Shown here: positions 16,698 through 53,200 of the stretch, one piece after another
Numbering within the stretch: the first letter of the stretch is position 1
Layout: every line of letters begins with the position of its first letter
Program-made: the position numbers and the translations under genes
Source of the DNA: Amphiscolops sp. MND2022
Lineage: Eukaryota
Reading direction: 5' to 3'
DNA length: 60,000 nucleotides
Assembly: GCA_964187785.1 (NCBI GenBank)
Contig: OZ076409.1
Span: forward strand, 50,222,001 to 50,282,000
The notes under the pieces: model-generated
Seen by the model: the letters and a program-made list of their open reading frames with translations, nothing else
Told to the model about the DNA's origin: nothing
The model's database searches: none

Positions 16698-19600
16698 TTG
16701 CTAAAGGCCAAAGAAAGCTCGTGTTTAGCTTCCGTGACCAATGTTAAAGGTCTTCTTCAAATTACAGAAGTTGAGTTGCATTCTGCTGGGGAGTCGAAGA
16801 AAGTTTTAGCTCTTTGCGACTCAGCCTGTAGCCATACTTGGATTTCCGCAAGTTTGGCTAGCAAACTGAAAGTCCAAGGAACACCGATAAAACTGACCGT
16901 TCATGGGATCAACTCCCAGCAAATAGTTGATACACAAATGGTAGAACTCAAGTTGACACCGGTTCATTCGGGTGGCTCTTGTTCTCCCTTTACAATCAAA
17001 CCTTACGTGAGAGACAACCTCAGTGTAGGCACCGATACTATTGACGTGGACCGCATGAAAATCAAGTACTCTCACTTAGAATCCTCACTTAGAATCAGTA
17101 CCTTTACACAAGTACAGCTACGCCGACGTTGACATGATCCTGGGTCAGGACGTGTTTCACTTTATCCGCCCGCTGGAGTATTTTGATTCCGACTGCAAAA
17201 AAGCTCCAGTTGCCGTCCGTCTTCCGATGGGCTGGGTATTAAGTGGACCTCTTCCAGCGATTTCAGGAATGTTCTCAACGTGCTTGAAAGCTGTTACGAG
17301 TAACAAAGACTCTGATTCCGAGCTCGTCGACCAACTCCGCAGCTGGTATGATATGGAATCATACGGAGCGATGATACAAGTGGACTCCCGTTCCGCAGCC
17401 GACGCGAGAGCGGAGAAGATCCTTGAGGAAACGACTTACCACGATGGAACTCGGTATCAAGTGGGTATGCTATGGGCTGACATTGAAAGTAGTTTACCGA
17501 ACAACTATTTTTCGGCTCTCGTTCAGCTGAAATCTTTAGAACGTCGTCTAGGGAAAGACGATGAGTTGAGAGAGCGATACTCACAAAACATCCAAGACGA
17601 CTTTTTGAAAGGTTATGTAGTGCGCGTTGACAAAACTGACTGCTTCAAAGTTAGTAACCCCCGTGAATGGTATCTCTCGCACCACCCGGTCATCCATCCG
17701 AACAAACCAGGTAAAGTTCGACGAGTGTTGAATGGCGCGGCCAAATTTCAAGGCTCCTCCTTGAACAATGCACTTTTAACGGGACCAGATCATCTACAAA
17801 GCCTCATCCATATCCTGATTCGATTTCGACAATACCCGTTCGCTGTGTCTCCGGACATTGAAGGAATGTTTCTCCAAGTTGGGGTAATTCCAGACGACAG
17901 GCCGTCACTCCGTTTCTTGTGGCGCGATGACCCAGCTGCAGAAGTTGCTGTGTTCCAGTACGTTCGCCATATCTTTGGATCCAAAGACTCTCCCACCTGT
18001 GCGAACTATGCCTTGAGACGAACAGCAACAGACAATGCATCCCAGTTACCCGAAGCCGCTCAAAGCGTCATCAACAACTTCTCCATGGATGACTACTTAG
18101 AATCCAGCCCAACCATCGAAGAAGCTGCCCGAAAAGCTAAAGGTCTGGTGAACTTGCTTTTACTAGGTGGTTTCAAACTGACAAAGTTCGTCTCAAATGT
18201 GCGTTCTATTCCGCCACAAGTAGAAACCGACTTCACAACACCAACTGAGACAAAAGAAATCCCCAGCACCGAAGAATCGTCACATGTGTTGGGATTAAAG
18301 TGGAACCACAGCAGCGACACCCTTGTAGTCAGTCGTGGTACGAACCCTGAAGTCAAGGCGAAAGTAACTCATTGAATCGTTTTGAGTTTAGTATCTTCAG
18401 TGTACGATCCGATCGGACTTGTTGCGCCGTATACCGTCAAAGCACGACTACTGCTAAAAGACATCTGGAGGTTAAGTGGACAACATTGGGATGACGATTT
18501 ACCTCCGGAAGTTGTATCCAAGTTCCCTGATTGGAGTGAAGAACTACCAGGACTAGCGAGATAGTCATTCCACGAGCGTATTTCCAGGGAAAAGTCAAAA
18601 CTTTGGAACTTCACCTATTTGGCGATAGTTCACAAGATGTGTTCAGCGCTGTCGCTTTCCTACGGGCCAAGGTTGTCAACAAAGAAAATCAAGAACAAAC
18701 ACAACTCGCCATCGTATTCGGAAAGGCCAGCGTAGCACCCATGAAAGCCCTCACAATTCCAAAACTTGAACTAAAGGCCTCGTTACTAGCAGCAAGGCTT
18801 CGGAAAGAAGTTGAGGAAGCATTGACACTGGAGATTAGCAAGACTTTCATGTGGTCCGACAGCATAACTGTCTCACAGTGGATACATTCTCTGGACAAAC
18901 AGCCAGTCTTCGTTGCGAACCGCGTGGCAGAGATTTTGGATTTTACCACGACCGACGAGTGGAATTATGTTAAATCCAGTGAAAACCCCGCCGATGCAGG
19001 CACGCGAGGCCTGTCAGCAAAAACATTGTTAGACAGCAGTTGGCTCAAATGACCGTAGTTTCTAAAAACGTCCGACTGGCCATTCAAGCCACTAGAACCT
19101 GCAAAAATTAAACTGAAACCTGACATTAACGACAAGAGCACAGAAAAGCTTTCTCCAAAAGATGAGACTTCTCTCAGTTCCAATGCGGACATCAACACAT
19201 CAACTTTCGAGTGGCATAAGTAAATCTCTTTCCAGAAACTTTTGCGTATTGTCGCCTACCTGATGCGTCTCATACCAAAAAATGAGGCCTACCGATCCGA
19301 GACGGGTACCATCACGGACCCAAGTGAACTTGAGAATGCACAAACGAAGCTTTTCTATCTGGTACAATTAGAATCATTCCCCATAGAAAAGAAGCTACTG
19401 CTGAAGAACTCCCCGCTGAGTGGTTCCTCTAAAATACTACACTTCTCCCCTTTCATTGGTCCCAAAGGTTTACTTCGAGCAACTGGCAGAACAAAACAAC
19501 TCGACGTATCTAGTTTTGACGCGAAACATCCCGTCTTACTGGACAGTCGCCATCCAGTTACACGTTTATTCCTCGAACAATTACACCGATTTCATTGTCA

Positions 19601-21043
19601 TCAAGGTGTGGACTACTTGAGGGCGTTGGTGCAGCAACAGTTCGCCATCGTCAAGCTTAGAACCACCTTGAGATCAATAGTTCAGAGATGTGTAACTTGT
19701 CGCAAACGTCGAGCTGAGACTATCAGTCCGATGATGGCTGACCTTCCACGAGAAAGACGTGCCTTCAAGGAGCCCTTGTTTACCAACACTGGCGTAGACT
19801 ACTTTGGTCCATTCTACGTTTTTGTGAAAAGATCGACTGAGAAAAGATGGGGATTCCTATTTACTTGTTTGACTACACGAGCTGTACACTTCGAAGTTGT
19901 GCCCTCCATGGACACTAGCAGCTGCGTTATGGGAATCGAGAGGTTTACTGCCCGCCGGGGTATCCCATCAGTTTTATGGTCGGACAACGGAACCAACTTT
20001 ATAGCCAGTGAAAAAGAACTCCTACAGAACATTTCCAGTTGGAACCAACAAGTCTTGTCTGAAACTCTCGTAAAGAAAAGAATTCTCTGGAAGTTCAACC
20101 CACCAAGTGCTCCTCACCATGGAGGAATCTGGAAACGACTGGTCAGAAGTTTCAAACACGTTTTCTACGCTGTTCTTGGGAAGAGACGCCTAACTGACGA
20201 GATCTTGACAACAACGTTTTGCCTTGTTGAGCAAAGTCTGATTGCATGACCGTTAGTACCAGCTAGCCCCGATGCCACGGATTTGGACGCTTTGACTCCA
20301 AACTACTTTTTGCTAGGAACTGCGGGTTCCGATCTACCATCGGGGTGACTGTAAATAGGTCGAATTTTTCTGGTCGAAAGGACAGAGGTCGAACCTTTTG
20401 ATCGAATTGCAGGAATCGAAAAGAATGCGGTCGAATTTTATCGTATGTGTTGTATGGCTCGGTCGCTTCGCTCCCTTCGCCAAGTAGCAACATTGAGGCA
20501 TGGCCATATGGCACGTCGCTCCGCTTCGCTTCGCTCCTGCATTCAGGGCACTTGGGGTATGTGAACATATCTGACTACGTTATAAAAATTTCGATCCGAG
20601 TTTTTCCGATCCCATTCAAGAAACTTGGTATGTCGACCTGAGGACTAACTCTGATTTTCGATCCCGTTCCTTCGACCTACTTCCGCCCACCCCTACCATC
20701 GCATCAGCGTGCTGAAATTGACGATCGAAAGCGCTATGTGCGTGCACAAGCCTATTCCGACGCCATATGGAATCGATGGTTGAAAGAATATGTGCCTCCG
20801 CTCAATAGACGTTCGAAATGGTCCAGCCAGCCGGAGAGACAGCTTAAGACCAGAGACCTAGTTTGGATCATCGAGCCAACGAGTCCAAGAGGACACTATC
20901 CACTAGCCCGAGTTGTGAAGTTAAACTTTGGCAGCGATGCCATTGCACGTTCCGCTGAAGTAAAAACCAGGACAGGTCGTCTTCTTCGTCCCGTTGTGAA
21001 GTTATGCCCCGTCCTACCTGTGTCTGCTTCCGAATCATATTAA
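16698..21043 (+). pseudogene. BEL/Pao pol pseudogene
   Basis: ORFs 16698-17132, 17134-18375, 18382-18564, 18603-19052, 19242-20249 and 20738-21043 are collinear pieces of one pol. Confidence 0.9.
20342..20693. mobile_element. 352-bp MITE inserted in the BEL integrase region
   Basis: Imperfect 23-bp TIRs (GGGGTG...TAGGTCGAA and TTCGACCTA...CACCCC) with TACCATC duplicated at 20335-20341 and 20694-20700. Excising it restores the BEL frame (GSDLPSHQRAE). Confidence 0.88.
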
Positions 21044-21325: not shown

Positions 21326-22412
21326 AAAATTGTTTCGTAAAAGTATATTTTGCAAAATACATAGTAAAAATAATGCTTTTGACATTTGCTATCTCGAAAT
21401 CTTATGTCATAGTTTGATCATTTATGTTCATGAGTTTTTGGTTTCTTTGTTGCGGGATTCTTCAGATGAATCATTGTACCCACATATTGTTTCGTTTTTC
21501 GTTAACTTTCATTGTTAATCCTCATTACATATGTTGGCGCCAGTCAATTGCGAGATCAAAAACTCAAATTCGAACGTAACTGATGAAACTTACAACTCAA
21601 AACACTTAGAAACTTTATCAAGGTTTTAGTTGGAAAATTTACAAGTTTCACTAGAAATATGGCGCCACCAAAAAACACCACCCCCCCTTCCCGGTAAACC
21701 ACTCATTCAATCACCTTGAAACTTGGCACACGTATAGTAGTGGTGCTACCCTAACTTTTCACTCTGTACACCCAACCTCGTATCTCCCCTGGGTTCCGAG
21801 CAATTAACACCCAAAGTGACCTAAGTCGGACCCCATGAATTACCCAATTTTGATGTATTAATTATTATGTGATTTTCTCATATGATCTTGAAGGAAATGT
21901 AACGCTGATGAAATTAACGATATTCACATTGTGTAAACATACTTTCTAACCCACCTGACCAACATGCCAAAACCACCACATAGTTTGTTTACTTTGCCAA
22001 TAACTTCATTTTATGCTTTAAATGTCATTTATTCATACCGCATATTCCAACTGATATTTGCTTATATTTACTGTAGAATTGTAAACCACATTTATACCAT
22101 TATTTGGTAGAGATTTTCTCTAACCTGACCAAAAGATAGTCCTTTAAAACAAGAAAACCAGGAATTGTTTAGTGACGTTCCACAGCACTAAGCAACGGAT
22201 CAGGGCGGCGTAAAGCTTGTCAAGCCTCAGCGCAGGATAGAAAGAAAGAAAGAATTAAATTTTCTCTGATGCTATGTTTAAAAAATTGAACAATAGTACC
22301 AGTACAGAAGTTAAGTACAATGCAGTCAGTTCAATTAAAAATATAGCACCAGAGGGGACCCTCCAAAGGTTATTATTCCTAAACGGGGGAGGACCCTCCA
22401 AACACAAGGGCA

Positions 22413-25400
22413 TCAACAAAAAACTATGTCTGCCAGACGTTCGCTACTTATTTTGTTTTTAATTTTTAATATCAATCTTTTAGTCTCATTTTCACCGATA
22501 GATTCATAATTGCGAGGTAATAGCTTCGTTTTTAGTAGATGATTCAGTAAGACAGTTCCACGATATTTTAGTGATTGTCGGCTTACTTGCGTTCGTGCTT
22601 CAGGTACAAAAAACATATTGGAAGAAACACTCCGAGTAAAAACAAGTGAATTTTTGTGGATAAATACGCTCCTGATATTATGCAGTTGACTTTCTCTACT
22701 AGAACGCACGGCGAATTTTAATAGTTCAAATACGTATAGATCAAAAACATTCATAATTTCGCTTCTTTCGAACAATTCATCCGATGGATATCGTCTGTTT
22801 TTGAAATATGTAATACGGAGGATTTTTTCTGAACAAGAAATATATCATTCAGTACACTCTTCCTCGTGCACCCATATATCAAGAGTCCGTATTGGATAAT
22901 TGGTTTCATGTATGTTTTATAATATCGTATCACTACCGAACTACTGGTGAAATGCCTTAGACGGTTAATAATGGATACATGTTTAGCTAATTTATTCAGT
23001 ACTCGTTTGACGTGGAAACCATAAGTTATATTTTTATCAAGTAAGACACCCAGATATTTAACGTATTCAGTACATGTTATTTCAGTATTTTTCAATACTA
23101 TGCTTTCATCTTTGCAGTTTAAAAACTGGACCAATTCAGTTTTAGGAATATTTTGACTGAGTTTATTCATAGCCATCCATCTAGGAATGTGTTCAACTTC
23201 ATCTTGTAATGTAGATGTTTCATTTTTGGGTCTCGCGTAAACGCAATTAGCATCATCCGCAAAGAGAAAAGGAATAATGTTTTTACACGAGTTCGGGAAA
23301 TCATTTACATAAATTATAAAGAGCAGTGGGCCAAGAATAGATCCTTGAGGAACGCCGCAGTCAATAAGTAATGGTTTTGAGACTTTACCGTTAATTGAAA
23401 CACATTGACTTCGTTTACTTAGATATGATGTGAACCAATCCAAGCAAACCCCTCTGACACCGTATGCTTCGAGTTTAGACAAGAGAAATTCATGGTTTAT
23501 TGTATCGAAGGCTTTTTGTAAATCAAGCAAAATACAAGAAATATCGAGGTTAGAATTATCCCTAATCATTTCTGTAATATCGGAAAGAGCGTGGATGGGG
23601 CTCAGTTTTGACCTGAATCCAAATTGTCTTGGGTATAATAGCTTATTTTTATCCATGAAATTATATAATCGTTCATGCACAACACGTTCAAATATTTTGC
23701 TCAATACTGATAAAACAGATATGGGTCTGTAATTTTCACGTATAGATTTTTTGCCGGATTTGTATATCGGTACCACTCTCGCAGCTTTCAAAACCTGAGG
23801 AAATGTTCCACTTTTTAGCGATTCATTCACGAGATCAGTTAATTTTTCAACTATTACATCGTGACTCACTTTTAGTATTTCTGCAGTCAGTCCATCTAGA
23901 CCAGGTGATTTATGGTTTTTAAGATTTTTTATAATCCTCGAAATCTCAGTGCCATCAGCTGGATAAAAAAACAGTGATTTTTCATTAGTTTTTATACCAT
24001 AAGTCGTGAATGGGACATTATCAATTGAAGCAGCTAAGGTTTTACTGATGGAAACAAATTTTTCATTGAACGATTCGGCCACATCAATATCATCCATAAT
24101 CAATTCATTTTTATCATTCTTGATAACAAAGTTGGAATTTTTTGTTGCTTTACCAGTGATTTTGTTTAGTTCTTTGTAGAAACATTTAGGATTATTGATA
24201 AGCCCATTCAGACGTGAATCGTAGTATTCGCGCTTGCTTTTACGAAGCTGCTGGTGCACATTATTTCTAGCTCTTGTGTAGCGTAGCTTGTTCTGATAGG
24301 TTTTACAGCGCTTGTATCTGTGGAAACTACAATTTCTTCGAATTAAGGCCTTTTTTACTTCCTTTGTGAACCAAGGTCTTACGGCATCTTGGTGTTCTGA
24401 TTGTTTTTCAACTGTGAAAGCATTAACTGCTTCCGATATTGCATTGGCAAACGATTCAGTAGATGCATTGATGTCCTGTCCTAAGTCTACAAGTTCCAGG
24501 CAATGTTTTAAGTAATTTAGATAGAGATTTGTTGCATTACCGTCCCGGAGAAACGGTCTATCCTTAAAAAAATGTTGAGAACGAATGGATTTAGATTTAC
24601 TTATATTCAAATCAACGTAGGTTGCAAAATGGTCTGTAATATACGTCTTGATAACTCCAAATTCCAGAGGTCTTTGGTAGTCATTATGGATTATATGATC
24701 GATTAACGATTCTGAGTCAAGCGTTACACGGGTTGGTTCTTCGATTCCTTGGGCGCAACCATGAATTTCCAACAATTTCAGATACCTATCTGCAACAGGG
24801 TTGCATTCCAAGAGGTCAAAATTAATATCGCCTATTAGATAGTAGTTCTTAATTTGACTAAGAGACTCAAGAAGTAACTCAAACTGATCCAAGAAATCAT
24901 GTTTATTTACGGAAGGCGAATTGTATAAGCATACAACGGTAAATTTTTCCTTATTCCTAGCGGTACATTTGACTCCAGTATAGTTTAGATCAGGAATAGA
25001 ATCTTTCTGTATGTTAAGCTCCAAAAGTTCAAATGCCAGCGATTCATGGACATATATTGCAACACCTTCATTTCTTGTTGAACCAGGATCAAATTCCATA
25101 GGTGCATAGGATTCTAGTGCGTAGGCATTTTTGTCAGAGGATTCAGTCATCCATGTTTCGGACAAGCAAATAATACACGGTTTGTTTTCACGTTTGTTTT
25201 TCACATCGATCACAGCCTGATACACGTCCTCATTTGGTGCCTCCTCCACCCCAAATATGCGGACATTGTCCCGCCTTCCATATTGCTGGTTTGAATCGGC
25301 ATTGAAAAGACTGGACAGCTCTCCGCTGATTTGAGGCTTTTCTGTAATTTTCGCAAGTTTGGACTGCAAGTCGGCCACCTCAGCTGCTGCACAGAAGCCA

Positions 25401-25563
25401 CATAGGAAGGGGCGGTCCATGAAACCCTTGTGGATCTTTTCGGGAGCCATGTGGGGACCCAGGATTGGCATCCCTTTCCCTTGTCGGGACCCTTGCCAGT
25501 ACATTCGATTAGGTGGGTGGACCCCTCTTCGTCTGATTGAGAGCCAGTTCTAGTAGTCGGCAT
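22413..25563 (-). CDS. LINE ORF1-ORF2 fusion polyprotein (PHD-like/coiled-coil ORF1 N-terminus, APE endonuclease, RT); two single frameshifts in homopolymers
   Basis: The 917-aa ORF 22751-25504 contains QQYGRRDNVRIFG (ORF1), CLSETW, GDIN and TDH (APE), and YRPIS, DLQKAFD, GVPQGSILGP, FADD and KYLG (RT). The N-terminus continues in ORF 25210-25563 (shift at about 25455) and the C-terminus in ORF 22413-22775 (shift at about 22825). Confidence 0.88.
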
Positions 25564-25574
25564 CGCGTCTGAAA

Positions 25575-25609
25575 CTATTTAATAAGTTTATCACAACAAT
25601 TAGGCTAAC
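25575..25609 (-). other. Putative spliced-leader (SL) exon sequence at the LINE 5' end
   Basis: The minus strand reads GTTAGCCTAATTGTTGTGATAAACTTATTAAATAG directly after the TSD, ends in AG and lies 11 nt before the ORF1 ATG. It matches my recollection of the acoel SL, which I have not verified. Confidence 0.65.
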
Positions 25610-25976
25610 GGATAAAGGCAAGCAGCCGTTACAGAATACAAACTTTAGCCATCTAAAGATTTTATAGTTCCAAAGTTAAAGTTCCTCTTAATATTGTTTT
25701 TCCGAGTCCGTATGGGTACGTATTAGGTGGCGTCTAGGTCCTAATTTGGTCCCTATTGTAATCAAAACTTCAGGTCCGTATTGGTCTGCTCAAAAGTTTG
25801 GCCACCCTGCCATATTGGCATCTTGCCCACAGAATGAATCCTTCTCAGGGCAACACTAATTCAAGAGGTCCCAATCGAGCCCACACTACTGGAGTACCCA
25901 CATAATTTATCTTATCTACGTGTCTTTTTATTACTCGCAGTTTAAAATGTTTCAGGTCTGTTTTTGCCATCATTGA

Positions 25977-42711: not shown

Positions 42712-42892
42712 TCAAAAATGCGTAACTACATAGGGAAAAAGTGTGAACAAAGTTTGTATCTGAATCCTAAACTATCACGCTGATTATAAATTTAAAACTG
42801 AATTCAGTTTTAAATTTATAATCAGCGTGATAGTTTAGGATCCAGATACAAACTTTGTTCACACTTTTCCCTATGTAGTTACTCATTTTTGA
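42712..42892. repeat. Near-perfect spacerless palindrome of about 180 bp centred on GAATTC
   Basis: Arms of about 90 bp are reverse-complementary around 42802/42803 with only a few mismatches. Confidence 0.95.
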
Positions 42893-43519: not shown

Positions 43520-43994
43520 AATACATAGTTTACACGCTGAAAGATATCTTTTGTTTTTTTTTCATCAGTTATTGACATTGGACAGTCACAAAATTCCAGC
43601 AAACTTCAAAAGATCAGAATTACAAGGGGTAGTTTTTGAAATGAAACAAGTTATTGTACTTATCTTTGTTTTTGTTTTTGGCGTTTTCCGGGTTCCATCG
43701 TGCATGTCTCGAAAACCGCTGTTCGTTACAACAAGACGGGAACGTCTAAAACTATCTAAACTAAATACATAGTTTACACGCTGAAAGATATCTTTTGTTT
43801 TTTTTTCATCAGTTATTGACATTGGACAGTCACAAAATTCCAGCAAACTTCAAAAGATCAGAATTACAAGGGGTAGTTTTTGAAATGAAACAAGTTATTG
43901 TACTTATCTTTGTTTTTGTTTTTGGCGTTTTCCGGGTTCCATCGTGCATGTCTCGAAAACCGCTGTTCGTTACAACAAGACGGGAACGTCTAAA
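43520..43994. repeat. Direct tandem duplication of 231 bp (period 244) with a 13-nt filler
   Basis: 43520-43750 matches 43764-43994, separated by ACTATCTAAACTA. Confidence 0.95.
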
Positions 43995-47248: not shown

Positions 47249-50200
47249 GTTAGTCCTAGTCTGATGAAGACTATTTGCTGATTTTATCAGCTTAGGATCT
47301 CAACAATAGTCGAAGTTTTTGCTCGAGTACCTCGCAGCGTCGCCCTGACAATGTTGCTTGGAAATATTCGCCTTATGAACTTCATCCTTGAAAGTTATTC
47401 TTGGAATTTTTTAAAATGTAGTTTTAATTCATTATGAAGGTCCCTCCTTTGAGTATTTTGAATTATGTTACAATATGGAAGTAAACCGAACCAATAGATT
47501 TCCCGGAACATGTTTACAATCCCCCAGGTACACCTTGCTGCGCATTTACAAATCCCCAACACGAAAACACCTTTCATTCCTGAAAAATTCTTGGTTCAGT
47601 TCCCTGGGCCAACGGGTACATTTTTGTAGTACCTTAAAATTTTGTATAACTTTTGGTAGAACTATTTTGGTCACTTCAGGTGTATCGAAAAAAACACTGA
47701 CGAAAAGCCACGACTATAGTCGACTCTTTTCTTAAGAAAAGCGCCGACTAAAAATGAGAATTTTGAACAGTCTCATAATGCCGCAACTTTTAAAGGGAGG
47801 GGACCATTTGGGATTTTTTAAAATTCATTCTGTTGCAAAATATCAGAAAAAATGAAGGGGACCCTTTGGAGACATTAAACATTTTCGGAAAAAAAGTCGA
47901 AAATCGAAAGGGCACTTTAGTCTCGTCCCGTTTTTGCACATGACGAAGTCAATGTGCATTGCAGTCCAGCTAAGAAAGTTTTTTTTCCACTATAGTCAAC
48001 TTCATAATGAGCGCCTTTTAGAAAAGAGCCAAAACCCCAGAGAGATTCGAACCTGCAGCCTCCCGATCGCACGGCATAAGTGTTGACCACTGTGCCATAG
48101 GGACGTTATTGAACAAAGTTGAACTGTTTAATATATACGCATGCGATTAAAATAATATATATACGCATACTAGAATAATCGATGTCTTCGTCATGTGTTG
48201 CGAAGCACCGCTTCGCCTCTGTGTGTATGTTACCTTGAAAGGGAATAAATGGACCCTTTGCACTAAGTTAGGTGCGTTTTCGCTGGCCGGTCCACTAGTT
48301 TAGTAGTTTCTGTTAAAAGTGTCCACTACGCATACGTTCTGTTATCTGACACAAAAAACTAGTCACTGTAATAGTCAGGCTTTTTTTCCTTAGGGGAAAA
48401 TGCGCCGACTAAAAACAGGGTCCGATTTATTTCCCTCTCCAATTCTTTGCCACTTCGAGACTCTTGAGCTAATTTCAAGATATTTTGAGATTTAACCTAG
48501 GCGCCAAATATAATAATTGCGCTGTTTGTTCAGATGAAATACAGCGATACTTTGGATCTGCAAAATCCCAAACTTCACTCGAACTTGTTTTACTTCCTGA
48601 GTCTTCCTCTGGAAAGCATTTGGAAAGTCTTGGGAGATTTCAATTTCAGAAGACTAGTGAAACACTGCTCGTGGTTTTATTACTGCAAGAAAGAACACAT
48701 GCTCTTGCAGCTGTCTGGGGCTTCTTTCTGTGACAGGATTTTCAATCTGAAAAAGCAGCAGGGTCGGGGTGTTGCTTTTGCAACTGCAATATCTTCTAAT
48801 GGTAAGTTAGTTAAGATGACGTTGATGAAGAGCAATTTTAGTACTCCAAAACATAAACTGGTGCAGATTTAATTTGTTTCAAGAGTACTTTTCAAATCTA
48901 ATCACAAATGGGATTTTTAACAAGCCGGGACCGGCCCAAGTCGGCGCCATATCCAAGGCTCAAAAATAGCAAAAGGACTTCCAAGAGTCAATTTACAGTA
49001 CTCGAAAATCGAAAAAGCAAAAAAAAATGGACCGAGTGGCGCGCCGGGGCCCGCTAGCGCGAGCCCCTGGCGAGCTAAAAGGGGGACACTTCCGAAATTG
49101 TCAACATTGTTGTCGCAGTTGAAGGGGGACCCTTTGGAGAAAAAACAAATTTTCGAAAAAAAGTCTCACAATGCCGAAAAACTGAAAGGGGGGACCCTTT
49201 AGGATTTTTAAACACTCTATTTGTTGTAAAATATCAAAGAAATTGAAGGGGGACCCTTTGGAGAGAAAAAAAATAGAAAAAAAGTCTCACAATGCCGAAA
49301 AACTGAAAGGGTGGACCCTTTGGGATTTTTAAACACCCTATCTGTTGTAAAGTATCAAAGAAATTGAAGGGGGACCCTTTGGAGAGAAAAAAATTTTATG
49401 AAAAAAGTCTCACAATGCCGAAAAACTGAAAGGGCGGACCCTTTGGGATTTTCCAACATCTATTCTGACGCAAAACAGCAAAAAAAATTTGAGGGGGGGC
49501 CTTTGGGGAAAAAATTTTTCCGAAAAAAAAGTCTCGCAGTGCCGGAAAAAAATTGTAAAGGGGGACCCTTTGGTCTCGCCCGGTATGGTATGTTACGCGG
49601 AAAAACAGGAAAAACCTTTTTGTTTCAGTTCGCAAGGCCAAATAGTGCATTTTGGTGCAATAATATTTTGTAGAACTTAAGAACTATTTTGGTCAGTTCG
49701 TGTGGATAGAAAAAAAAGAGTCACTATAATAGTCGCGTTTCACTCCATGAAGCGCCGACTAAAAACAAATTGAATATATGTACTCAATATCTTTTCATCT
49801 GGTTTATAATGTTTCATGTTCCAGTGCCACAAAAGCTAACGTCAGTAACAAAAAGCAGAAAAGATGGATCTCCTCAGAACACTATTTATCCGCATCCTCT
49901 CTTGCTCTGTAAACAACCTTCGCACGGTGACAAAAAAGAGTCTTTCAACGTATGGGATCAGAGCTTCTGTGTTACTAACAGATCAATGCAAGTCCTTGCC
50001 TCTCACATCTTCAAAACTGAAACAAAAACATCCAAAAGTGGCAATGTTTTCTTGGCAAAACGCTTGAAAAAATTGCCAATATTTCTCAAAAAGTTGGTTT
50101 CAGCCATTCGGCTATTCAAGTGTCCCAAAACACAGAAATGTAACGAATCCGATTTTGTGACTTATTTGTTAAAGTTTTTGCCAATGGAGACTTTCGGATG

Positions 50201-53200
50201 TGTACAGAATCGAGAGAAGGTGATTCAAGCGTATATGAAGTATTTCACCATGACCCGATATGATAAAGTTGATATTGATTGTTTACTGGGAAATCTTTCA
50301 GCTAGAAGAATCAAGTGGTTATCTTTCACGCAGACACATGAAAAAAGTTCGTTAATAGCGTCTCAAAGATTAGTTCACGCTTTCTTCCGCTGGCTGCTTT
50401 TCGAAGTGGTGTCCAGAAAAGTATTTTCTGTTTTCCGAACTGAAATTGACCCTTCGAAAAGTTATAAAATTGTTTATAGTCAGAAAAATCAAGTTATGAA
50501 GTTTCAACAGAAAGCCTTATCGTTTTATTTAAAACCGCCCATGCAGCTTTATAAGCTAATAAAGAAAAAAGATACAGAAATGCTGCTGAAAGAGAAGAAA
50601 ATTCTCGGAGTTTCTAAACTGAAATTCTCAAGAAAAGGAGATGGATCGTTCAGACCTATTGTAAAACACGGCGAAGTCTGCTTCACAAAAGAATTGGACA
50701 TAAAACTGAGTGTCAATGCCAATCTTGAAAAATTGAAGCAGTTTTTCTCATTTTTGCGGCATTCCTCGGATCCTGCAGTTTCGAATGGATGCAGTATTTG
50801 TAAGGGATCTAGAGAGGACATTTTGGCTCGCAAACTGATCAGTTATTTCGAAACTGTCAAAGAACCAGTCATTTATTACGTGAAAGCAGATATTCAGAAA
50901 TGCTACGATTCCGTAGACCAGGAAAGAATGTGTAATATCGTGAATGGATTATTTGACAAAATGGATCGAGAGAAATTTGTTTATCAAAAACTTTTGCTTC
51001 TACAGGGGAAAAAGTTCAGTTTTCATGGAAAAAAAGGAAGTCAGAAGCCTAAAGTTGATGACTATTTTGTGAGATTCTCCAAAGTGATTCGGAAGCTAAG
51101 TTCGGGTGTAAATATTAAAGGTGCCAAGTGGTATGAAGATTTGGATAGGGTGTGTTCGTTGGGCAAGCACTGTGGAAAAGACGCGAAGGTTCTAGAGCTG
51201 CGACAATTTGAGAAGGAAACGATTTGCATGTCTGATTTGCGAAGATTGTGCCTGATTTTGGTAAAAAGAAATGTTGTTAAATTGGTCGGAAGTGATGTGT
51301 ACTTGTGGCAAAAGAAAGGTCTTTCACAGGGTTAGATCTGACGAAAAAAATGATAGAAAAATTAACAGCGAAAGATCCCAAAAAACGAATGATATTAGAT
51401 ACATACGCAAAAATTAAGCTGAAAATTGGTCCTGCGAAAAGTATTTATTATTTGCTATTATATTATTATTTTTAGTTAGTTATTATTAGTTTGTTATTAG
51501 TTATTGTTATTAGCTATTAGTTTGTTATTATTTGCTATTATTATTATTGCTATTGTCAATATAAAATAATTTTTTTCTGGAGAATGCAATTTTTTTCTAT
51601 AGAAGCTTCAAAGTTTTTTCATATATTTGATCTTTTCTCAGTTACTATGGCTGCTATTCTAAATGAAATTACTTATGTTGATCTAACCGTGTAATTCCCG
51701 TGAAAGGAGCCAATATTTCCTCTTTTTTGAACATGTTGTATTTGAACGAATTAGACTCCCGGTTTTTGATTCCAAAATTCCAAGCCCAAGGACTTCTGTT
51801 ACGTCATGTGGACGATTACATCTTCGTGTCAGAAAACAAAGAAATGGCCGAGAAGTTCTCCCGGATGTTTTTGGAAGGGTTCCCCTCCTTGAATTTGAAA
51901 GCCAATCCTGACAAAGTTCATATTTTTGCATCCAATGGAAGAGACACGTGCTTCATATGGTCAGGATTGAGAATCAATGTTGCCAATGGTGACATTAGTC
52001 CTGATTACAGCTCGCTTTATTCTAAAGGTAATGCATCTTCATGACGTAAATGGGTGTACTCGTTCTGGAATCCCTTGTCAGTTTAGCATTCATGTTCTAT
52101 CATTCAGTTATTGAGATTATTTAGCTTCGCGTAGCTCTTGAATTTTGATTTTCTTTCATTGCCTGAACTAATTATTTGAACTAATTTCCATTTGATTCGC
52201 GTAATCGAAAAAAAATGGTGTTGCGATGTTTTGTCACTAAATACTTGACTGTTGAGCGAAGTTTACTGTTATAGTAGCTATTTGGCATAGTATACTGAAG
52301 TTCAATTTCCCAACTTTGTGACCTCAAAGTCTTGAAGATCTAAATTTGTTTTTTAAATGGAATTAATCTCAATACCTATTGTAATACTCAGAACATTTTT
52401 TTCTATGCAGTTCTTCATTAATCTGGAAAGACCCTGAGTTGTAAGTATTTTCTTTTGTAGGTATAAAATTTGAATTGAACCAGTATAGAATGACAGTGCG
52501 CGGACGATTTAATGGAACTTCGGTTCAACAGCACAAAAGAACTTCGTGAGTCCTCAGCATGTTACTCATTGAAAAAATCCTTGAAGCTTCGTTTTTGACG
52601 CTATGACATTTTCTCCGACAAAAATTGGGGTTTCGAGCCTTATGGGTATCCCTTCGAGTATTTTTTGGCACTGTGAACTTGATGAAATTTTTCACAATAG
52701 TGTCCCTTAGCATATTTTGAAGAAGAAAAATGTTTTTTTAAGCTTGAGCGGGGCGCCGACTTGGGCCGTTCCCGGCTTGTTCTTACTTAGTTGGGACCCA
52801 CCAGCCAAAAGATACAGTCCTTTCCAAACAAGAGAACCAAGTAACGGTCCGCAGTACTAAAAAACGGATCAAAGCGGCGTAAAGCTTGTCAAGCTTCAGC
52901 GCAAGATGAGGGCAAGCAGCCGTTACGACAATGACATATAACTTCGTATTTTGATTTGATTTCATAACAAAAAATGCCCTTTAATTACTGATCAAAATTT
53001 GAGTTACCCTTCTCCTGAGACTTTTTTGTTGAATGAACATAAAAGATTTCTCGCTATGAAAGTTTTCGTGAGACAAATCGACTGTCTTTAGCTTTTTGGT
53101 AGCGACTGTCTAGCAGATAATGTGCTCAAATATGGTGACAGAGACCAAACAATACCATTTAATGACAAATTGTTTTTACGATTGATTTATCTAGATTCTG

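Follow-up and report, generated by a model that had tools for sequence, protein, structure and literature searches.

Spliced leaders at the 5' ends of LINE families in an acoel genome and their possible renewal by trans-splicing

In the genome of the acoel Amphiscolops sp. MND2022, entire families of LINE retrotransposons begin with the spliced leader (SL) of the host, and this head almost certainly originated by trans-splicing. For its maintenance, the reading favoured here, with fair confidence, is a self-renewing 5' end, in which a read-through RNA would be trans-spliced onto the SL-derived AG of the copy itself. A wider claim is held at slightly better than even: non-LTR retrotransposons of two endonuclease groups may have abandoned their own promoters for a spliceosome-based cycle, acquired an acceptor cassette stepwise (a TTTCAG helper, a TTTCCGG lock and a fold-back onto the SL) and, through A-to-I editing of the leader, left a one-generation stamp fossilised in hundreds of genomic copies. 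Here the SL is the standard head of entire LINE families; SL-bearing retrotransposon loci are already in print for flatworms and Hydra, in the accessible parts of the papers concerned.

The window, i.e. the whole stretch of 60,000 nucleotides that was analysed, contains an internally deleted, two-ORF APE-type LINE at 22240-25609 on the minus strand. A 5-bp target site duplication (TSD), GGATA on the plus strand, borders it at 22235-22239 (3' end of the element) and 25610-25614 (5' end). The initial annotation had fixed the ends by this TSD and by an uninterrupted paralogue of the target at about 52.9 kb; the TSD was upheld, and the paralogue (about 52860-52935; feature at 52861-52935) indeed lacks the insertion but is diverged and differs at two of the five TSD bases. 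On the minus strand, the element comprises a (TTCT)n 3' tail common to the family by copy comparison (22240-22254), the remainder of ORF2 with APE endonuclease and reverse transcriptase (RT; 22751-25191) and the 5' part of ORF1, frameshifted and cut by the deletion (25203-25563). The domains of ORF2 were assigned from profile matches on the full copy L095 (RVT_1, E 5.7e-34; Exo_endo_phos, E 0.003, which is below the Pfam cut-off). Full family copies of about 3.9 kb carry a separate ORF1 of 250 amino acids with PHD-like and FP-like look-alikes and an ORF2 with an N-terminal APE followed by the RT, which together with the simple-repeat tail and the TSD is the layout of an APE-type LINE. By its motifs and the PHD/FP-like ORF1, the element presumably belongs to the CR1 group (L2/Crack/Daphne-like).

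In the window copy, the region between the middle of ORF1 and the beginning of ORF2 (about 547 nt) is missing, and a short filler templated from nearby sequence takes its place near 25192-25202 (minus strand). An intron was considered for this deletion and rejected, as GT-AG ends are missing and the filler is templated; the junction is not a splice junction. The window copy is not intact; it is best explained as a long-form retrocopy that was internally deleted afterwards or concurrently.

At the other end, the 35-mer described at the start of the element was confirmed at 25575-25609 on the minus strand. It occurs once in the 60,000-nt window, with 0 occurrences expected by chance, and ends in AG 11 nt upstream of the ORF1 ATG. 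It consists of a 32-nt SL exon (25575-25606, assigned by its match to the SL), which forms the 5' end of the LINE, and three additional bases, GTT (25607-25609), between SL and TSD. Towards ORF1, the SL is followed by TTTCAG (25569-25574), a consensus-like motif for which the role of a distal acceptor is proposed.

The identification as a spliced leader was correct, as 31 bases of the head agree with the published SL of Symsagittifera roscoffensis (available text of PMC9911081), in which 30.2% of genes are trans-spliced with the SL according to the same text. The annotated length of 35 nt was not: the leader has 32 nt and starts with the A at 25606. Among 56 full-length dispersed copies, 49 begin at this A, and a G precedes it in only four of these 49; GTT is therefore junction filler rather than leader sequence or copy of a cap, and the cap-derived G suggested earlier was rejected on the same count. 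A separate SL RNA gene, as had been predicted, is present in tandem units of 904 bp, each comprising the exon, GTAAGT as donor, two stem-loops, an Sm-like site AATTTTTGA and then a 5S rRNA gene. The junction of the LINE head coincides exactly with the donor boundary of this gene. In the genome, 1709 exact copies of the 30-nt SL core were counted, of which 427 are followed by a base other than G. At G000:C11:965358-965443, two SL copies lie on the same strand 60 bp apart.

Transcript evidence came from assembled contigs, with the window stretch present in two of seven runs. In contigs from two studies the SL is fused to unrelated sequences (few contigs, with loose ends at 25575), in line with the expectation that the SL occurs on unrelated mRNAs and is a true spliced-leader exon. 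Other contigs, about 98% identical and of low depth, span most of the LINE body and do not permit transcript starts or levels to be read; contigs joining the flank to the SL exist that could be DNA. The SL itself contains a branch-point-like CTAAT about 26 nt upstream of its own final AG, and this motif might act as a branch point.

Across the whole genome, SL-derived bases were found upstream in 70 of 70 matches to the ORF1-start pattern of the window family, a pattern that overlooks copies with C at its first place or a change in the 18-mer. The initial annotation had regarded an SL as normal 5' end of all family members as an argument against trans-splicing; this is the situation encountered, yet trans-splicing is not refuted by it, and renewal by trans-splicing is favoured. 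The master copies with a longer 5' UTR that had been anticipated were found neither in the window family nor in two other families, and a genome-wide pattern search for a non-SL acceptor before TTTCAG in the window family gave no match. The window family does not target a fixed position in SL RNA genes; its copies have unrelated flanks and lie on all large contigs.

The spacer between SL and the following exon measured 6 nt in 59 of 69 matches and 0 nt in the other 10, with no case of 1-5 nt, and exactly TTTCAG is absent in 11 of the 70 family copies. These short copies appear to have originated repeatedly, as trans-splicing at a second acceptor would predict. A tree was built from 62 of 69 element entries, after omission of seven with short cover or tandem duplicates. 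The 10 short copies among these 62 required nine changes (mean of shuffled assignments, 9.4) and were spread over old (five), middle (four) and young (one) age classes. The tree is ladder-like and poorly resolved (one of 59 branches starred), and starred branches force just two origins of the short form; a ladder would also be obtained from a slowly changing master. Divergence of 1.4% in the SL and 1.3% in the body is compatible with any model. The 5' end of the window family folds no better than shuffled sequences (z 0.86), i.e. a fold-back was not detected, and heads with A-to-G changes were absent among 56 matches. SL mutations tied to a subfamily were not seen in the copies compared, in what is a weak test.

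The SL head is not limited to this family. A sample of 76 distinct loci, chosen by SL matches and picked by the base after the SL and thus non-random, formed 42 clusters that include APE-type as well as RLE-type elements, and the junction lay exactly at the donor boundary in all 76. Of 17 loci for which 7.5 kb were read, 15 contain an RT oriented like the SL, with 23-50% identity to the RT of the window element, and an RLE-type single-ORF family carries the identical SL head. Nine of the 42 clusters matched none of the LINE loci used for comparison. Directly after the SL, TTTCAG stands in five clusters, TTTCCG in five, sequence complementary to the SL 3' end in 11 and other sequence in 21; many of these 21 begin with A, as splice products would. 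The complementary (anti-SL) arm in the 5' UTR thus occurs in 11/42 clusters compared with 1/798 control windows, and is mostly followed by an acceptor-like motif. A further family shows a loss of 27 nt that ends at an AG. Five SL-headed clusters without acceptor motif (L133, L139, L144, L153, L160) share repeated TTGATTG words just 3' of the SL. Upstream of the SL, many 5' junctions (among them those of L084, L189, L194, L265 and L284) contain additional bases that duplicate parts of the SL itself and may be templated insertions made at integration. For L127, an SL spliced onto a flanking repeat by 5' transduction was considered and not upheld; the locus is a decayed LINE with nested insertions.

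Two of these families differ in their acceptor region. Family B (the L042 family, with TTTCCGG) is a very young LINE burst, in which 40 scored copies are identical across the first 300 bp and one copy, L117, retains intact ORF1 and ORF2. All 27 heads read are SL-derived, the short form was found in none of these 27, and non-SL sequence upstream was sought in this family and not found. In family C, with six matches, three are long, two lack 4 nt, against the AG rule, and in one (L285, G000:C12:39022714-39022833) the exon is immediately preceded by non-SL sequence that is rich in T and resembles an acceptor. L285 is either a truncated copy or a candidate for an outron-bearing source. Because of the 40 identical copies in family B and an inverted whole SL that forms part of the 5' UTR in another family, SL-headed copies are regarded as the propagating line. 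The earlier proposal that SL addition limits LINE amplification by creating dead ends is consequently not supported, SL-headed copies being the norm.

The inverted SL belongs to family A, a single-ORF PHD-RT element of RLE-type layout, the homologues of which end in CCHC and PD-D nuclease motifs (read in homologue P0010). The 5' UTR of family A contains an inverted copy of the whole SL and of the spacer that follows it, giving a fold-back of about -50 kcal/mol. Because this arm is complementary to the SL over its full length, base 1 included, the source line of the family descends from an SL-headed copy. In this inherited arm, 11 of 12 As have been lost (seven to G), and none of the 20 other bases has changed. 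The SL heads show a different picture. Counted by hand, with tandem duplicates included, in 100 listed of 148 long copies, G was found at SL position 16 in 0, at 18 in 60, at 19 in 97, at 20 in 43, at 24 in 99, at 27 in 92, at 28 in 10, at 29 in three and at 31 in one. Bases 1-17 are unchanged. At position 27, A was kept in eight of the 100 listed, an SL with a single change occurred in one long copy, and an unchanged SL in none of the 100 listed. For positions 18 and 20 combined, all four states are common (27/13/30/30 in the same 100 of 148); both positions have A in about half of the copies, whether old or young, and the states did not cluster on a tree of the body (21 copies, 300 nt only). 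The junction of the short copies follows CTTCAG, at a weaker part of the helix, and most of these copies have a perfect SL. Non-SL sequence upstream was sought in family A and gave five matches, all of which were mutated SLs. Of 28 family A cut-outs, one (L292) was mis-placed and left out.

This pattern suggests that a new leader undergoes A-to-I editing in every cycle, probably by an adenosine deaminase; A-deaminase domains, of ADAR or ADAT1 type, are present in the genome. The leader would have to be fresh in each cycle, because changes so frequent and irreversible would have become fixed in an inherited SL, as they have in the arm. An earlier use of family A as proof of vertical SL inheritance was dropped in view of the mixed states at 18 and 20 and the per-copy G spectrum. 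A variant class of SL genes as origin of the diverged heads was also rejected, as the SL intron follows none of 100 listed of 189 matches and 0/11 in another set; only four SL genes with a single such change were found. A second, uncharacterised family has its own partial A-to-G profile at positions 24, 27 and 28 (about 30 of 56 matches). As a control, T-to-C at position 26 gave 13 scattered matches compared with 56 for A-to-G at position 27.

Taken as a cycle, renewal would proceed as follows. A genomic copy begins with the SL exon, and the LINEs probably keep no promoter of their own, so that an upstream host promoter would read through the copy. The last AG of the SL, the first AG after the CTAAT within it, would act as proximal trans-splice acceptor, assisted by CTAAT and the downstream TTTCAG-type motif. 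A fresh SL would then replace the flank together with the old SL, thereby restoring the 5' end on a capped RNA, which would be reverse transcribed to its first base, as the full-length heads indicate. Use of the downstream AG instead would generate the observed short copies without TTTCAG; in families with TTTCCGG this second AG has been lost, and short forms were not seen. Where the 5' UTR of a family can pair with the SL, the newly added leader would be partly A-to-I edited before copying, as the pattern in the heads of such families suggests. The evidence for renewal comes from family A and the second, uncharacterised family, and would extend to the window family by analogy. A possible precedent for the acceptor choice comes from Caenorhabditis elegans, the germline of which shifts to non-consensus AGs just upstream of the consensus UUUCAG (accessible part of PMC10946429). 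Counting against the model, the hairpins bury the proposed proximal AG, and family C contributes the two of six copies that lack 4 nt and the non-SL sequence upstream of L285.

Three other explanations were weighed. Each family could depend on one or a few hidden source loci with their own promoter, an outron and an AG before TTTCAG, with all dispersed SL-headed copies as dead-end retrocopies of trans-spliced mRNA; this comes closest to the initial annotation. Such masters would account for a fresh SL and per-copy editing equally well and would fit the ladder-like subfamilies and the pyrimidine-rich, non-SL sequence upstream of L285, and a single haploid assembly may miss a source allele. However, none was found in the window family, family A or the very young family B, the frequency of anti-SL arms inside 5' UTRs relative to controls speaks for SL-headed ancestry, and the model requires dozens of families to possess one master each, a locus that spliced RNA could not restore; it is considered unlikely. 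Judged somewhat less probable again is a single capture of the SL exon by trans-splicing, followed by its inheritance as internal Pol II promoter, with only short forms freshly spliced. Hannon reportedly described internal promoter elements in the nematode SL RNA gene in 1990, which would suit this possibility, as would copies beginning at SL +1, the unchanged bases 1-17 in family A, the perfect SL of most short copies of that family (but of none of the 100 listed long copies) and the elements in the SL gene array that begin with the first 18 SL bases (see below). An inherited promoter would nevertheless require strong selection for just those As that persist at positions 18 and 20, half A in old and young copies, and at 27 in eight of 100 listed. 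One modern SL moreover heads families with 23-50% RT identity and of two endonuclease groups, and the conserved acceptor motif would be a pure cost.

A template switch by the reverse transcriptase, onto SL RNA or an SL-bearing mRNA, with unspliced LINE RNA and short forms as microhomology deletions, was considered very improbable. Repeated 5' addition did give rise to the snRNA heads of Tx1-Mar LINEs and SINEU (available text of PMC4494074), a deletion from AG to AG has 2 nt of microhomology, and the two family C copies break the AG rule. Against this, junctions lie at the donor boundary without SL intron bases in the loci read, whereas those of SINEU vary by up to 22 nt in that text; this contrast is weakened by sampling via SL matches, which would under-sample junctions elsewhere in the SL RNA. 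Deletions of 1-5 nt (0/69) and the 27-nt loss ending at AG in another family also disagree with template switching.

Several known systems resemble parts of the favoured renewal of the 5' end by trans-splicing. In dinoflagellates, DNA copies of trans-spliced RNAs keep the SL and are trans-spliced again, so that SL relics pile up and decay in retrogenes. Both systems keep the SL in DNA copies, but there host genes are recycled, whereas here LINEs are concerned (15/17 loci with RT), with one current SL and no nested relic; no host-gene retrocopies with nested decaying SL relics were identified among these loci. R2 and L1Tc have 5' self-cleaving ribozymes that free a defined 5' end from a longer co-transcript. 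Co-transcription of R2 is described in PMC3636483 (accessible part). A defined 5' end would likewise be freed from a co-transcript in the acoel elements, but by the host spliceosome and SL RNP, which would supply the cap as well.

The RLE elements CRE, SLACS, CZAR and NeSL insert specifically into SL genes (available parts of PMC3636483 and PMC4640811). They too are non-LTR elements with a link to the SL, probably transcribed together with host sequence from a host promoter, and family A shares their single-ORF RLE layout as described there; in contrast, the window family is APE-type and dispersed, has two ORFs and includes the SL in the element itself, at the 5' end. SINEU and the U1/U2-headed Tx1-Mar LINEs acquired their heads by template switch with variable junctions (PMC4494074, available text). 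They share a head derived from a Pol II small RNA, but show neither a splice-donor boundary nor renewal by splicing, whereas the acoel junction is fixed at the donor boundary. In parasitic flatworms, 597 discarded loci were tied to LTR or LINE elements with partial leaders (accessible part of PMC12582326), and in Hydra the SL was present on about 30% of transposable element Iso-Seq reads (accessible part of PMC12220107). Both cases share with the acoel the addition of the host SL to retrotransposon RNA and the presence of leader sequence at genomic loci. These remarks, made in passing in the parts available, concern partial leaders without family analysis, whereas the acoel families start with the whole SL and show alternative acceptors, fold-backs and signs of renewal. 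Literature searches that covered mainly the text of open-access papers yielded no account of complete LINE families with a renewed SL at their head, nor of genomic copies with an edited leader; the supplements of PMC9911081 and PMC12582326 might contain relevant material.

The SL/5S array itself (G000 C1 16.23-16.36 Mb; L128:1777-3777, L128:4684-7579, L129:1383-3004, L129:6819-9712) contains inserts from several families of 1.4-2 kb elements. Each lies within an SL exon, and its 18-bp TSD is identical to SL bases 1-18. The inserts have one ORF1-like frame of 400-540 amino acids (28% identity between two families) and no RT; the frame had no Pfam match and showed weak CCHC/ZCCHC3-like look-alikes. 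The protein gave 106 matches, mostly clustered at a few places on C1, C12 and C13. These inserts look like non-autonomous SL-gene-specific elements. Elsewhere in the window, a 508-aa frame at 49809-51335 has motifs that presumably recall telomerase reverse transcriptase, and decayed pol fragments at 764-2562 and 17134-20249 are taken, by motifs, to be from Gypsy-like and BEL/Pao-like LTR retrotransposons. A perfect-looking 138-bp palindrome without spacer (42734-42871) and an exact 231-bp tandem duplication (43520-43994) are also present.

For annotation in acoels, the several hundred non-gene SL copies confound the identification of SL genes and trans-splice sites. The edited heads offer a rare means to separate inherited from newly made parts of an RNA using DNA alone. 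Known solutions for the upkeep of a LINE 5' end are internal promoters or self-cleaving ribozymes, and renewal, if true, would be a third, in which the SL machinery of the host is borrowed for start site, cap and translation. LINE heads should then follow the current SL of each species, and germline splicing should favour the proximal AG. It would also add a selfish-element angle to the persistence or loss of SL trans-splicing.
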